From the IMG/VR virus record IMGVR_UViG_2872180393_000006, positions 1 through 19,189 of that record: a stretch of 19,189 bases of DNA; one strand, written 5' to 3'. The notes beneath the pieces were generated by a model. The model ran no database searches. It was given only the letters and a program-made list of their open reading frames with translations, and had not been told where the DNA came from. Below, one piece after another: positions 8,729 through 19,189 of the stretch. Every line of letters starts with the position of its first letter. The first letter of the stretch is position 1. A program made the translations under genes and the position numbers. Source of the stretch: a virus (taxonomy: Duplodnaviria > Heunggongvirae > Uroviricota > Caudoviricetes).

Positions 8729-9031
8729 TTAACGCGTATTTTTCAGCGACTCCTGTGCAAAATACGCTGTTGCTTTTTTTAATATATCTCGCTCAAGGCG
8801 AGCTTCATTTAACGCCTTACGCAGTTGCAGAATTTCAGATTCCAGTTCAGCCACCGTGCGGGAACCAGGAGTACCGAGCCCTTTTCTGGCGGCGGTAACC
8901 CATTGTCCTAAAGTGCCTTCAGGAAGGGATAATCGGGAAGCGCCTTCACTGATCGAAAGTTGATTTTCAGGAACCGTTCTGACAGCTTCGGCTTTGAACT
9001 CTTTAGAGTAACGTTGGGTTTTTCTGCTCAT
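8729..9031 (-). CDS. IS600 OrfA (HTH transposase subunit)
   Basis: 100 aa, MSRKTQRYSKEFKAEAVRTV..., ending shortly after the A7 slippery site. Confidence 0.9.
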   Translation of the reverse strand: MSRKTQRYSKEFKAEAVRTVPENQLSISEGASRLSLPEGTLGQWVTAARKGLGTPGSRTVAELESEILQLRKALNEARLERDILKKATAYFAQESLKNTR

Positions 9032-14417: not shown

Positions 14418-14621
14418 ATGAACGAGACAGAATTAAAACACGTTATCGCTCTACTCCCAGAAGATGCAAAACGCCTCCAGCAACTGGAGCCAAATGCAGG
14501 CACTGGGGCACGCATCTGGCTGGCTAAAGAAGCGCTGGAATCTGGCGATTATGATAGCGAAGAAGCCTTCTACAAAGCAGAAGGCCGTGCAGGATATTCA
14601 CCGGGTCTTGGCGGGGTATAA
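14418..14621 (+). CDS. ydfB: YdfB-like small protein
   Basis: MNETELKHVIALLPEDAKRLQQLEPNAGTGARIWLAKEALES...; the ATG lies 1 nt after the ydfA stop. The C-terminal tail overlaps the convergent gene and may be longer than in K-12. Confidence 0.6.
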   Translation: MNETELKHVIALLPEDAKRLQQLEPNAGTGARIWLAKEALESGDYDSEEAFYKAEGRAGYSPGLGGV

Positions 14622-14894
14622 ATACCATGCGCATTGACTGAATTCACAAACAAAAACAGACGCGCGATACCCGGATAGTCGGTCTGCATAGTCAGATATC
14701 TGGCTGCGAATTTGATAAATATCACCGCCCTTTTCGGAAACATAAGTTCCGTCCGGGAGTTGATTATACGAACCATCTCCATGGGGGATCGTTCTCCTGA
14801 ATCCTAGTGAGAGCATATATTTATGAAGCCCTTCGTAATCCTCTGGCTCAGCATTATATAGTTCTACTCTGGCGAGATACGTTGGCATATTCAT
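14598..14894 (-). CDS. Hypothetical protein (98 aa), convergent to the dicB operon at the position K-12 has ydfC
   Basis: Uninterrupted ORF with a strong SD (TAAGGAAA) 5 nt before the ATG and protein-like composition. No plus-strand ORF of ydfC size exists in 14621..15060. Confidence 0.55.
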   Translation of the reverse strand: MNMPTYLARVELYNAEPEDYEGLHKYMLSLGFRRTIPHGDGSYNQLPDGTYVSEKGGDIYQIRSQISDYADRLSGYRASVFVCEFSQCAWYLYPAKTR

Positions 14895-15065
14895 TTCCTT
14901 ACTGGTTGTGTGAGAACTTCAGTAAAGATACCACCAAAGCCCGGAGGTGGTGAAATAAAACCGGGCACAACACGAAGGCGCATTTCCGGTATCCATAAAG
15001 AGTCGGTCTTGTCTGTTAAATTTAAATGGTGGGAGTGCGCCTCCGGTTGTAAATAACGACATTGC

Positions 15066-15123
15066 TGTGTGAAGTACTAGTTGGCGGCATCGGTTTAATT
15101 GCTGGCTGATGTCCGCCCTTTTT
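15066..15123 (+). ncRNA. dicF: DicF-like sRNA (Qin-type cell-division inhibitor RNA), variant
   Basis: The terminator stem-loop GGCGGCATC...GATGTCCGCC plus TTTTT and the following AAAGTGAATTTTGTGATG.GGTGAATGCGGCT.AGCGCACGCGGAAC match the 3' half and downstream region of K-12 dicF as recalled. It sits at the correct operon position, between the ydfB side and dicB. The 5' part differs from K-12. Confidence 0.55.
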
Positions 15124-15289
15124 AAAGTGAATTTTGTGATGCGGTGAATGCGGCTCAGCGCACGCGGAACAGTTAAAACAGTAAGGAAAATCCCTTATTC
15201 CGGCGTTAATTGTTAACTGGTTAACGTCACCTGGAGGCACCAGGCACCGCATCAACAAAGTTCACTTCGGTGATGAAAGGAAAGAGAAA

Positions 15290-16135
15290 ATGTTGAATGT
15301 AGCTATTGAAAACCAGAACGGGTGGAATTATAGTGCACCTGCACCTCATAAAACGGGTGCCGGGATTGCTACCCCGAAGTCATTCACGGCGCATAACCGC
15401 GCTCAGGCGGTTTTTTTATGCGTAATGCACAGCCACATTCAAATTATGGTGGGGCGTGCGGGGCAGTCGCAAGACTGGCCGGGTTCCGTGATGACCGGTT
15501 GTAGCAACCCTGTACGTCTCACCACCCATGAGATTGCTACCTCCGGTGGTGAGTTAATCAAATTCATCGCGGAGGCTGCCATCATGGCTACTACCCTTTC
15601 TCACCCTTGTGTAACCGTAGAAAACGGTCGCGCTGTCACTACGTCTGTTGCGGTTGCAGAGTTCTTCCACAAACGACACGACAATGTGTTACGTGCCATC
15701 GCAAATATTGAATGCTCAGATAAATTTACTGCCCTCAATTTTGAGGCGAGCGAATACACCGACTCAACCGGGCGCAAACTCCCAATGTACCAAATCACCA
15801 AAAACGGCTTCGTTTTCCTGGTTATGGGATTCACTGGCAAAAAAGCCGCTGCATTCAAAGAAGCCTACATTGCTGAGTTCGACCGCATGGAGGCCGAACT
15901 GCGCCAGAATAACACCCCACCTGCTGACAAGATGATTCCGGGTGATGGTCGCACTCTGGTTGTTCACTTCGACAAATTCGGCAATGTCGAATTCACCGAA
16001 ACCGTTCCTGATGGCGCACTGGTCTGTAGCCTGGAGACTTTCCGGTTTTATCTGGAAAAACAGGGATGGACTCTTGTTAACCGGGGCGCAATTAAAAATA
16101 TGACTGTGGAACAATTACTCAAAATTCATTGTTGA
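15290..16135 (+). CDS. Phage regulatory protein Rha family; the Rha domain starts near residue 100, so the start may instead be the ATG at 15584
   Basis: VTTSVAVAEFFHKRHDNVLRAI...FTALNFEASEYTDSTGRKLPMYQITKNGFVFLVMGFTGKKAAAFKEAYIAEFDRMEAEL is a classic Phage_pRha signature. ATG 15290 has an AGGAAAGAG SD and ATG 15584 has a GGAGG SD; the N-terminal 98 codons have no recognisable domain. Confidence 0.6.
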   Translation: MLNVAIENQNGWNYSAPAPHKTGAGIATPKSFTAHNRAQAVFLCVMHSHIQIMVGRAGQSQDWPGSVMTGCSNPVRLTTHEIATSGGELIKFIAEAAIMATTLSHPCVTVENGRAVTTSVAVAEFFHKRHDNVLRAIANIECSDKFTALNFEASEYTDSTGRKLPMYQITKNGFVFLVMGFTGKKAAAFKEAYIAEFDRMEAELRQNNTPPADKMIPGDGRTLVVHFDKFGNVEFTETVPDGALVCSLETFRFYLEKQGWTLVNRGAIKNMTVEQLLKIHC

Positions 16136-16754: not shown

Positions 16755-17591
16755 CTACCATTTGTTCTTTTTTAAAGCAGCCATCTGATGATATTTTTCC
16801 CTGAAGGCTGCCGGGGAGATATTCCCCAGACGAGAGTGACGACGCTGACGATTGTAGAAAATCTCAATGTATTCCCGTATTACTGAGATGGCTTCATCCC
16901 GGTTATTAAAACGATAGTGGCTCAGGCTCTCATTTTTCAGCGTTCCCCAGAAGCTTTCCATCGGAGCGTTGTCGTAACAGTTACCTTTACGCGACATTGA
17001 TGTTTTCAGACCAAACTGCTCCTGTATGACCCGGTAATCGTATGCGCAGTACTGTGAACCTCGATCAGAGTGGTGGATTAGCCCGGCAGGTGGGCGCTGG
17101 CTCCTGAGCGCCATAAACAGGGCTTTACCTGTCAGCTCTTTTGTCATGCGCTCTCCCATGGCGTAGCCGACAATTTCGCACGTATAAACATCTTTGATGC
17201 CAGCTAGGTACAACCATCCCTCCTGTGTGGCAACATACGTCAGGTCCGCCACCCAGACCTGATTTGGTGCTGTAGGAGCGAACGTCTGGTTCAGCAGATT
17301 TGGCGCAACTGGCAGATTGTGGTTCGGGTTCGTAGTCGCTCTGAACTTGCGTTTCTGCTTACAGCGTAGCCTTAGCTCCTTACGAAGACGTGCCAGTCGG
17401 TCACGACCAACGATGATGCCATTCTCTGCCAGCTCCGTCTGGAGCCGCCGGGTTCCATATGTTTCGCGAGTGCGGATATGTGCCACCTTAATCTCCAGTT
17501 TTAGCCGCTCATCACTTTGTTTTCTGTCTGAGGGTTCATGCTGTACCCAGTTGTAATAACCGCTCCTGGATACACCAAATACCTGACACAT
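16755..17591 (-). CDS. IS600 OrfB with a 6-codon C-terminal extension caused by loss of the native stop
   Basis: 278 aa ending ...YHQMAALKKNKW, against ...YHQMAA in copy A; TAAAAAAAG in copy A reads TTAAAAAAG here. Confidence 0.85.
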   Translation of the reverse strand: MCQVFGVSRSGYYNWVQHEPSDRKQSDERLKLEIKVAHIRTRETYGTRRLQTELAENGIIVGRDRLARLRKELRLRCKQKRKFRATTNPNHNLPVAPNLLNQTFAPTAPNQVWVADLTYVATQEGWLYLAGIKDVYTCEIVGYAMGERMTKELTGKALFMALRSQRPPAGLIHHSDRGSQYCAYDYRVIQEQFGLKTSMSRKGNCYDNAPMESFWGTLKNESLSHYRFNNRDEAISVIREYIEIFYNRQRRHSRLGNISPAAFREKYHQMAALKKNKW

Positions 17592-17929: not shown

Positions 17930-17993
17930 TATTAGCTCCTTCTGATGCCATTCTATTTCAGGAAGGAGTGTCCGTTAAACTCAGGCTACCTCA

Positions 17994-19189
17994 ACATTCG
18001 CATCTGGTTCATGTTTCGAGGAAAACGATGTCGGGAAACATTGAAAGGCTGGGAGATTACTAACAGTAACATTAAAAAGGCCGGGAATTTAAGAGCGTTG
18101 ATAGTTCATGAAATCAGTTCCGGTGAATTTGAGTATTTAAGACGTTTGCCCCAGTCCAGCACTGGGGCAAAAATGGTGACAACGAGGGTCATAAAAACAT
18201 TCGGGGAGCTTTGTGATATCTGGACAAAAATTAAAGAGACAGAGTTAACAACAAACACAATGAAGAAAACGAAATCACAATTAAAAACACTAAGGATAAT
18301 AATTTGTGAGAGTACCCCGATATCGCATATTCGTTATAGCGATATCTTAAACTACCGGAATGAACTGCTGCATGGAGAAACGCTTTACCTAGATAATCCA
18401 AGATCCAACAAAAAAGGAAGAACCGTGCGCACAGTTGATAACTATATCGCCCTGCTCTGTTCGTTGTTACGTTTTGCGTATCAGTCGGGATTTATATCAA
18501 CCAAACCATTTGAAGGAGTAAAAAAATTACAGCGAAACAGAATAAAGCCTGACCCGTTATCTAAAACAGAATTCAATGCATTAATGGAAAGTGAAAAAGG
18601 ACAGAGCCAAAACTTGTGGAAATTTGCCGTTTACTCCGGGCTTCGTCACGGGGAACTGGCAGCTCTGGCGTGGGAGGATGTGGATTTCGAGAAGGGAATT
18701 GTGAATGTCAGAAGAAACCTGACGATACTTGATATGTTCGGTCCCCCAAAAACAAATGCCGGGATCCGGACGGTAACATTACTGCAGCCGGCTCTTGAAG
18801 CACTGAAGGAGCAATACAAACTGACCGGGCATCATCGCAAAAGCGAAATCACTTTTTATCATCGGGAGTACGGCAGAACTGAAAAGCAAAAACTGCATTT
18901 TGTTTTCATGCCCAGGGTGTGTAACGAAAAACAGAAACCTTATTACTCGGTAAGCAGTTTGGGTGCAAGATGGAATGCAGCAGTAAAACGTGCTGGTATT
19001 CGCCGCCGTAATCCGTACCATACGCGACATACTTTTGCCTGCTGGCTGTTGACGGCAGGAGCGAACCCGGCATTTATAGCCAGCCAGATGGGGCATGAAA
19101 CTGCGCAAATGGTGTATGAAATTTACGGTATGTGGATTGATGACATGAACGACGAACAGATAGCCATGTTGAATGCGCGGTTATCGTAG
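17994..19189 (+). CDS. Lambdoid prophage tyrosine integrase (IntQ/IntR-like), 5'-truncated by IS600; reading frame open from inside the IS
   Basis: The C-terminus has the tyrosine-recombinase catalytic region (...LRHGELAAL...HTRHTFACWLLTAGANPAFIASQMGHETAQMVYEIYG...). Native sequence begins ...IRIWFMFRGKRCRETLKGW; the first in-frame native ATG is at 18011. The stop codon is the last three bases of the window. Confidence 0.8.

Follow-up and report, generated by a model that had tools for sequence, protein, structure and literature searches.

The region between a dicF-like gene and the Rha domain (positions 15124-15583) of viral record IMGVR_UViG_2872180393_000006, of which a stretch of 19,189 nucleotides (nt) was analysed (the window), very probably contains at ca. 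15290-15590 an RNA immunity module of the P4/P1 type, placed ahead of a gene for a Rha-family (Bro-network) regulator. An earlier note, made from the letters alone, had suspected either an unusual N-terminal extension or a second small RNA (sRNA) or leader between dicF and Rha; the observation is real, and every feature that it named is found where it was placed. The suspected RNA turned out to comprise two sRNA families, accompanied by an internal promoter, a terminator and antisense targets over the Shine-Dalgarno (SD) sequence of Rha. An Rfam scan of the whole window gave exactly two matches at gathering level, C4 and isrK, both inside this region. The locus is a further case of a known phage RNA switch, and no mechanism new in kind is involved; what is worth recording is a problem of annotation in RefSeq and Pfam, the quantification of a frame kept open without conservation of its peptide, and the breadth of the recombining specificity types.

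Two RNA families with their own promoter and terminator

The covariance-model match to isrK (RF01394; 64.8 bits for a gathering score of 50, E 4e-12; see Table 1 for coordinates) consists of a first hairpin, a second hairpin with the b1 element (15366-15372) in its loop, a single-stranded a1 element (15380-15389) and an intrinsic terminator, in which the match ends. This terminator, an AACCGCG...GCGGTT hairpin followed by T7 (U7 in the RNA), was located at 15395-15417 both by a sequence check and by a terminator scan. The c4-a1b1 model (RF03163) overlaps the 5' half of isrK (15328-15380) with a score that remains below its gathering score (20.6 vs 46.7), so that family membership is claimed for isrK and not for c4-a1b1.

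A sigma-70 promoter-like site with 10 of 12 matches ends 7 nt before the start of the isrK model, with a predicted transcription start at ca. 15341. Its position matches those of PLE in P4, P51b in P1 and PisrK in Gifsy-1, and -35 and -10 hexamers occur at a constant offset upstream of isrK in all 10 loci compared, window included, as judged by eye, unscored, on the printed 60-nt flanks. Positions 15290-15340 are near-invariant among 50 unique homologues (variability 0.001-0.011) and are more conserved than the Rha coding sequence (CDS). The conservation of this block, which holds both hexamers, reaches 16 nt upstream of the -35, and an operator or UP element may also be located there. Its own promoter, its intrinsic terminator and a spacer of 24 nt to C4 place the element in the isrK family; Hfq binding and trans-activation of a downstream gene are properties of IsrK that have been demonstrated for Gifsy-1 only (PMC4825925).

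The C4 match (RF01695) covers the full model (1-87) with 79 bits for a gathering score of 45 (E 2.5e-14). The minimum free energy (MFE) structure of this segment (-44.5 kcal/mol) is the Rfam structure, namely a 17-bp closing stem, a GNRA hairpin (CAGTC-GCAA-GACTG, 15464-15477), a second hairpin with the recognition element a' in its loop (15485-15494) and a 3' junction containing the element b' (15501-15507). The tRNA-like stem is followed by a C-CCA tail (15525-15528) that resembles a tRNA acceptor end.

Pairing was assessed in an alignment of 26 homologous sequences that include P4, N15, a P1-like phage and Gifsy-1. The six intramolecular helices of isrK and C4 have 93.6% of their cells paired, with 20 compensated pairs, when registers slid along the alignment give 35-47% and none of 500 shuffles reaches the observed values. 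For C4 itself, three helices are 98.5-100% paired and 12 pairs have changed on both sides; the long stem is 100% paired, with 7 compensated pairs. The terminator-like hairpin with its U7 tract and the nested GC-rich hairpins that had first attracted attention are hence present, covarying and covered by Rfam models, well past anything that chance would give, and the covariation across related prophages that had been proposed as a check was found.

The 8-bp stem also noticed earlier (TCACCACC at 15519-15526 and GGTGGTGA at 15545-15552) is real as well. Taken as a helix of 15518-15526 with 15545-15553, it is paired in 97.4% of the cells of the 26 sequences and 5 of its 9 pairs are compensated (slid controls, 33-62%). 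Because one of its sides is made of the C4 tail and the 3' side of the closing stem, this helix excludes the mature C4 fold and represents an alternative to it, one that would display the b2 target in its loop.

The ATGGT at 15446, in the 5' strand of the closing stem, is invariant in 26/26 sequences. In 10/10 loci the frame read from this AUG meets no stop within C4, and at the present locus it joins that of Rha without interruption. The first of the start codons of orf45 in Gifsy-1 corresponds to it; in that phage, activation falls from 114-fold to 20-fold with the A107C mutation (PMC4825925). Opposite C4, a weak promoter-like match (TTGCGA-18-CATAAT, 9/12) was seen on the minus strand at 15443-15472 and has probably arisen by chance.

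Recognition elements and specificity types

Both recognition elements of C4 have two complements each in the region. The b' element is complementary to b1, in the loop of isrK hairpin 2, and to b2, located just 3' of C4, while a' is complementary to a1, in the single-stranded tail of IsrK, and to a2, which runs into the GGAGG located 8 nt before ATG 15584. In the 26 sequences, 11 types of b' and 17 types of a' occur, each matched by its own b1/b2 or a1/a2, and a and b types recombine independently (loci L017 and L062, for example, have a common a type and different b types).

Column-wise counting of pairs was dropped for the duplexes between C4 and its targets because registers shift by 1-2 nt between types and MAFFT splits the b2 variants, and a scan of full-length C4 against the region was uninformative since C4's own fold is ignored in it. 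These duplexes were examined by a matrix of cognate and non-cognate duplex energies over the same sequences. Mean energies for cognate vs non-cognate pairs were -9.2 vs -2.3 kcal/mol for b'-b1, -9.0 vs -3.1 for b'-b2, -12.1 vs -4.4 for a'-a1 and -14.6 vs -6.1 for a'-a2, cognate duplexes being 6-9 kcal/mol stronger. The cognate target was the best one in 25/26 sequences for both b'-b2 and a'-a2, and was best or tied in 20-26 of 26 across the four pairings. Moreover, a2 abuts or overlaps a GAGG or GGAGG in 25/26 sequences.

This pattern, which is that of P1/P7 heteroimmunity, argues strongly for selection on RNA-RNA pairing. In P1, P4 and N15, the corresponding RNAs (C4, CI and CA, respectively) act in trans and determine heteroimmunity. 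The element of the window belongs with them by its gathering-level score, its compensated helices, its covarying paired elements and a target lying over the ribosome-binding site (RBS) of the first gene. The module would gate a Rha-type regulator encoded between the dicF and dicB genes of a Qin/Rac-like prophage and, given that many specificity types recombine, probably governs cross-talk between lambdoid prophages and satellites residing in one cell.

Table 1. Features located between the dicF-like gene and the end of the Rha gene
Feature	Position	Strand	Basis
Structured leader, 3' of the dicF-like terminator	15124-15267	+	RNA fold, K-12 alignment
GTTAA(T/C) hexamer hairpin	15202-15228	+	MFE structure, L017 variant
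Leader hairpin CCUGG-AGGCA-CCAGG	15230-15244	+	MFE structure, STnc100 alignment, K-12 identity
Long open frame, 281 amino acids, 'Ash' plus Rha, P4 eta equivalent	15290-16135	+	List of open reading frames, Pfam
Promoter-like site P_isrK, TTGAAA-17-TATAGT	15306-15334	+	Scan, 10/12 matches
IsrK/seqA-type sRNA	15341-15417	+	Rfam RF01394
C4/CI-type antisense RNA	15442-15529	+	Rfam RF01695
Invariant AUG, 5' strand of the C4 stem	15446-15448	+	Alignment of 26 sequences
Alternative helix, CUCACCACC (15518-15526) with GGUGGUGAG (15545-15553)	15518-15553	+	Pairing in 26 sequences
Target b2 (UUGCUAC), complement of C4 b' (GUAGCAA)	15534-15540	+	Duplex energies
Target a2 (UCAUCGCGGA, 15564-15573) and overlapping SD GGAGG (15571-15575)	15564-15575	+	Duplex energies
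Short Rha protein, 183 amino acids, start GGAGGCUGCCAUCAUGGCUAC, MATTL...	15584-16135	+	Phage_pRha match

Comparison with related loci

The equivalence of IsrK-C4 with seqA-CI of P4 and the occurrence of such systems in lambdoid prophages have been described (Barquist et al. 2013, PMC3632133), one system, that of Gifsy-1, has been dissected (Hershko-Shalev et al. 2016, PMC4825925), and CI/seqA homologues inside Bro-network genes, as well as the eta logic, have been reported (Mageeney et al. 2023, PMC10111431). The isrK and C4 tandem was detected at gathering level in nine other loci (P4, N15, RCS47, Gifsy-1, F004, ST64B, SfV, Stx1_499 and yong2), the two RNAs being separated by 107 nt in P4, by 44 nt in the P1-like RCS47 and by 23-25 nt in each of the remaining seven. 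The matches correspond to seqA and the CI RNA in P4, to the CA RNA (C4) in N15 and to IsrK and the orf45/STnc1160 region in Gifsy-1.

The initiation region of ATG 15584 is nearly the same in P4 (where it serves kil), F004, SfV, Stx1_499, yong2 and RCS47, and shows few substitutions in ST64B. The gene behind this conserved start differs from one locus to another: it encodes Rha in the window, ST64B, Stx1_499 and F004, an ORF6N protein (AnrP) in Gifsy-1 and Kil in P4; in SfV and yong2, the domain search recognised no domain beyond the Ash stretch and no Rha match. In RCS47, the annotated Ant (ORF6N plus ANT) lies further downstream.

A long open reading frame (ORF) that begins before the promoter and continues in frame into the first gene is also present in P4, ST64B, SfV, Stx1_499 and yong2. 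In ST64B and SfV, where its start lies 354-360 nt 5' of isrK, there is an overlap of 4 nt with the stop of the gene before; in Stx1_499 and yong2, the start is at this stop or no more than 2 nt away. The ST64B record itself notes a similarity to 'P4 ORF199'. The homologous frame of N15 contains stops.

The closest parallel to the window is P4, in which seqA, cI, seqC and kil follow in the same order and the two RNAs fall in the same Rfam families (isrK at 8615-8692 and C4 at 8420-8507 of the P4 sequence). The internal promoter occupies the same position, the start is of the same SD-AUG-'MATTL' type, and a long frame matching PF10554 begins upstream of the promoter. The 199-aa (amino acid) P4 ORF starts upstream of PLE, measures 197-199 aa depending on which start of its MMM is used, and its last 65 residues begin MATTLTPSHP. 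The string EAAIMATTL is common to the starts of kil and Rha, EAAIM-ATTLSHP of the window aligning with EAAIM-ATTLTPSHP of P4, so that ATG 15584 is equivalent to the start of kil and the 281-aa frame to eta. The ORF sizes match those reported by Forti et al. in 1999, namely 197-199 aa for Eta, with three adjacent Met codons at its start, and 65 aa for Kil; eta is reportedly translated and required for read-through. The same eta/kil logic is given in a later account (PMC10111431), on which, together with the match in ORF size (197-199 aa and the 65-aa Kil), the statements on eta and kil made here are based. The window differs from P4 in several respects: its nested gene encodes a 183-aa Rha regulator instead of the 65-aa Kil; its isrK and C4 are 24 nt apart, as opposed to 107 nt; a leader that is non-coding precedes its long frame, which has an SD of its own, while in P4 the coupling of eta is to an upstream alpA-like gene; and the module resides in an operon, with dicF and dicB, of a lambdoid prophage of the Qin/Rac kind.

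The Gifsy-1 locus, isrK-orf45(STnc1160)-anrP, also has the IsrK/C4 tandem, a promoter immediately before isrK, a conserved AUG (the orf45 start) at the 5' end of C4, an IsrK complementary to the C4 loops and an a2 lying over the SD of a Bro-network antirepressor. There, IsrK supplied in trans raises anrP translation ca. 100-fold, and STnc1160 is a processed RNA from downstream of IsrK (PMC4825925). In Gifsy-1, however, the frame closes before C4 is reached and orf45 ends ahead of anrP, whereas the frame of the window continues in register into Rha; AnrP is an ORF6N protein and not Rha; and the Gifsy-1 locus lies beside the Q antiterminator while that of the window belongs to an early-left operon of the dicB type.

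The immI region of P1 and P7 (P51b-a1 b1-c4-a2 b2-icd-ant) likewise has a C4 RNA with two recognition elements, targets duplicated before and after C4 with the downstream ones over an RBS, and specificity variants that define heteroimmunity, and the P1-like RCS47 displays the same tandem and complementarity. In contrast to the window, P1-like phages have no long overlapping frame; their first downstream ORF is icd, which is followed by Ant (ORF6N plus ANT).

A frame kept open without conservation of its peptide

ATG 15290, preceded by AGGA at 15278-15281, opens a frame of 281 aa that includes ATG 15584 in the same register 294 nt further on, so that the extension amounts to 98 codons. The coordinates given earlier for the Rha signature, starting at an internal ATG with a GGAGG of its own in a frame open from 15290, were verified. 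As ATG 15290 precedes the internal promoter, the long frame can be translated only from transcripts started further upstream.

Codon and frame tests were performed on the 50 unique close homologues (80-99% nucleotide identity) obtained from 80 viral contigs. Variability at codon positions 1/2/3 is 0.069/0.095/0.093 in the extension and 0.089/0.056/0.192 in the Rha CDS, the extension lacking the third-position excess that marks the latter. The pooled ratio of nonsynonymous to synonymous differences (pN/pS) is 0.67 for the extension and 0.30 for Rha, and synonymous differences per site are fewer in the extension than in Rha in 8 of 9 pairwise comparisons. Amino acid changes in the extension take the form of multi-residue cassettes located exactly at the a1/b1, a'/b' and a2/b2 positions. 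Nonetheless, the long frame is open in 50/50 homologues, the only indel spanning 3 nt. Among 68 distinct variable cassettes of the long-ORF clade, no stop triplet occurs in this frame, vs 28 and 24 in the other two. Of the proposed N-terminal extension, the frame, which has been kept open, therefore stands and the peptide, which is not conserved and shows no clear constraint at the amino acid level, does not; the conserved, synonymous-biased protein of 281 aa that would have spoken for a plain coding region was not found.

PF10554 (Phage_ASH) matches residues 14-104 of the 281-aa ORF (E 5e-16; 59.5 bits with the extension alone and 63.6 bits with the whole ORF, for a cutoff of 26), and Phage_pRha matches residues 117-201, which are residues 19-103 of the 183-aa protein. 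PF10554 also matches the obsolete 137-aa 'cI' CDS of P4 and the 'cA' CDS of N15, as well as, over the full length of the model, the 199-aa Eta ORF of P4; the family corresponds to a reading frame that covers the promoter, seqA, CI and seqC. The published equation of Ash with P4 epsilon (PMC8628076) is rejected since epsilon matches PF25738, the PF10554 match in P4 being to the eta/'cI' frame (P4 positions 7888-8175 and 8168-8767 were examined). That survey of P4-like satellites took PF10554 as its marker for epsilon (PMC8628076) and has probably detected the RNA immunity region instead.

If the extension were instead a true protein domain (Ash), folded at the N-terminus of a 281-aa Rha protein, the RNA matches would be incidental. 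This view could draw on the strength of the PF10554 match, on 282-aa homologues in RefSeq and on a frame open in all close homologues. It is rejected as highly improbable given the missing third-position excess, the cassettes that change at three sites and covary as RNA complements, and the promoter and strong intrinsic terminator inside the frame. It is further opposed by the N15 frame, which has stops, and by the SD and AUG of Rha, which are conserved in front of unrelated products (Kil and the SfV and yong2 proteins). Finally, the 'cI' and 'cA' ORFs matched by PF10554 encode immunity factors that are RNAs (PMC3632133, PMC10111431).

The presence of an RNA switch overlaid by a frame that is open but not conserved as protein accounts for the 'Ash' annotation of this region in databases. 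RefSeq lists the homologues as 282-aa 'Rha family' proteins, with no non-coding RNA (ncRNA) at the site, while INSDC record LC710661 (F004), a homologue with 67% identity, annotates both ncRNAs and the short CDS only. A stretch labelled 'Ash', to which Pfam assigns no function, holds two regulatory RNAs, their targets and a promoter.

With PF10554 above its cutoff and a frame that starts before the promoter and runs through the RNAs into the first gene, the extension most likely copies the nested eta/kil arrangement of P4. For the large lambdoid clade, it may be proposed, tentatively and with belief not quite balancing doubt, that selection keeps a frame of at least 90 codons open since translating it is the switch, and that dicF/dicB-operon transcripts escape C4 immunity in this way. 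If so, transcripts of the DicA-controlled operon would give Rha isoforms of 281 or 229 aa and express dicB while RNA control would continue to apply to those started at the internal promoter; the eta mechanism of P4 would extend to Rha/Ant antirepressor modules, and Pfam 'Ash' would be a translated RNA-control region and not a protein domain. What points, indirectly, to such translation-driven anti-termination is solely the stop-free frame (0/28/24).

Alternatively, only the RNAs would matter, the open frame being a functionless by-product and the ORF, the 'Ash' domain and the RefSeq CDS all deriving from a frame free of stops by chance. This seems rather unlikely, although not negligibly so. 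It agrees with the absence of a third-position excess, with RNAs that are intact in N15, F004, RCS47 and Gifsy-1 where the frame is interrupted, and with the F004 record, in which the short CDS and two ncRNAs are all that is annotated. Chance, however, fits poorly with hypervariable cassettes that avoid stops in one frame only, with a sole indel of 3 nt and with the coupling of the frame to the preceding stop in ST64B and SfV (overlap of 4 nt) and in Stx1_499 and yong2 (within 2 nt), and for P4, both translation of eta and its requirement for read-through have been reported (PMC10111431).

Proposed mechanism

What is established at the level of the sequence (the RNA families, the covarying structures, the three-way covariation of recognition elements, the overlap of a2 with the SD, the promoter and terminator motifs and the open frame) can be assembled into a scheme by borrowing RNase P processing, trans action of C4, a decoy role of IsrK, Rho-dependent termination and translation-driven bypass from related phages. 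The constitutive-looking promoter would start transcripts at ca. 15341, most of which would stop at the U7 terminator (15417) and yield a 77-nt IsrK/seqA-type sRNA. Transcripts reading through would carry C4, which may be excised, as its equivalents are in P1, P4 and N15, by RNase P recognising the CCA tail and the stem that resembles that of a tRNA. The a' and b' elements would then pair with a2 and b2 on the same or sister transcripts, and translation of Rha would be blocked since the paired a2 overlaps the GGAGG of ATG 15584; the untranslated mRNA would probably be terminated subsequently, as in P4 and P1. Because it carries copies of both targets, IsrK should compete for C4, and its b1 and a1 elements could titrate C4, or the C4 part of a long transcript, which would make it a decoy or an activator of Rha (compare IsrK of Gifsy-1). 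Transcripts of the upstream dicB-type operon that pass the dicF terminator and the structured leader would include ATG 15290, and ribosomes moving along the long frame might melt the terminator, C4 and target structures so that RNA immunity would be bypassed as with P4 eta, the 281-aa Ash-Rha product being a by-product of this translation.

A purely cis-acting leader or attenuator, in which pairing of the isrK a1b1 elements with a'b', the C4 fold and the 15518-15526/15545-15553 helix would compete to decide on Rha translation, was also considered. Covariation of the helix that competes with the C4 stem is in line with it, as are the Gifsy-1 structures A and B, which are backed by compensatory mutations (PMC4825925). 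This is nevertheless regarded as improbable: the many independently shuffled a and b types fit discrimination in trans between co-resident elements, a diversity that a cis device by itself would not need, IsrK of Gifsy-1 is itself trans-acting, and the RNAs of P1, P4 and N15 act in trans and set heteroimmunity (PMC3632133).

Several points weigh against an immunity module of the P4/P1 type working as outlined above. Every mechanistic step is transferred to this locus by analogy. In Gifsy-1, the published model involves alternative structures in cis and IsrK binding to the long mRNA, and not C4 in trans, and constitutive STnc1160 did not relieve IsrK toxicity (PMC4825925). Read-through of the dicF terminator, and hence use of ATG 15290, would be a presumption carried over in the same way. 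The pN/pS of the extension is 0.67 and thus below 1, which RNA constraint can account for, although some constraint at the peptide level may contribute. Finally, 2-3 stops close the long frame in N15, F004, the P1-like RCS47 and Gifsy-1, so that it is not essential to the module.

Upstream leader, cassette borders and neighbouring genes

The segment upstream of the module, 15124-15267, is not part of the isrK-C4 cassette. It folds into a long closing stem (15125-15146 with ca. 15245-15267) around several hairpins, the MFE of 15119-15289 being -61.5 kcal/mol (z = -5.2), and aligns with the dicF-dicB spacer of the Qin prophage in K-12 (positions 2436-2600 of the K-12 sequence, L085), 47 nt being identical around the GTTAA(T/C) hexamers. 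STnc100 (RF02076) gives a partial match at 15130-15259 (model positions 22-154 of 206) with 33.7 bits for a gathering score of 47, which is taken as a resemblance only; the hairpin at 15230-15244 aligns with the CCGGGAGGCACCCGG hairpin of that model and is identical in K-12.

The three hexamers (GTTAAT at 15205-15210, GTTAAC at 15212-15217 and GTTAAC at 15220-15225) had been viewed as an array for protein binding. In the RNA fold, a hairpin has its arms in hexamers 1 and 3 (GGCGUUAAUU and GGUUAACGUC) and its loop in hexamer 2 (GUUAACU). All of its pairs are kept in the L017 variant, GACGCAGAUU...GGUCUGCGUC, in which three are changed on both sides and a fourth on one. The array has been replaced accordingly by an RNA hairpin with compensatory changes, to which a protein might still bind. 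In this otherwise conserved leader, 15178-15198 is a hypervariable, indel-rich hairpin spot where homologues carry unrelated, hairpin-like inserts of 14-30 nt.

In K-12, dicB follows the leader directly and the segment corresponding to ca. 15263-16119 (isrK promoter, isrK, C4 and rha) is lacking, as seen by comparison with K-12 positions 2584-2620. The isrK promoter, isrK, C4 and rha form a discrete cassette of ca. 0.86 kb, with similar short sequences (CAACAAAGTTCACTT.. and CAAAATTCATTGTT..) at both borders, which suggests that it has been gained or lost by recombination.

The DicF model (RF00039) matches 15075-15118 with 29.3 bits, below its gathering score of 48. The dicF-like gene (15060-15124) aligns with K-12 dicF in its 3' hairpin and terminator and differs in its 5' part, which is GUGAAGUACUAG here and UUUCUGGUGACGU in K-12; the gene may encode a variant of DicF that acts on other targets. 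A 98-aa ORF occurs on the minus strand at 14598-14894, in the interval that separates the ydfA/B/C-like genes from the dicF-like gene. On the other side of the cassette, a transposase-like ORF resembling OrfB of the IS3 family of insertion sequences, with DDE-type motifs recognised by eye, comes soon after the dicB-ydfD-like genes (16755-17591 on the minus strand and 17945-19189 on the plus strand). IS1 and IS600 occupy the corresponding place in L001, the closest homologue of the region in E. coli, and the prophage is for both reasons probably degraded there.

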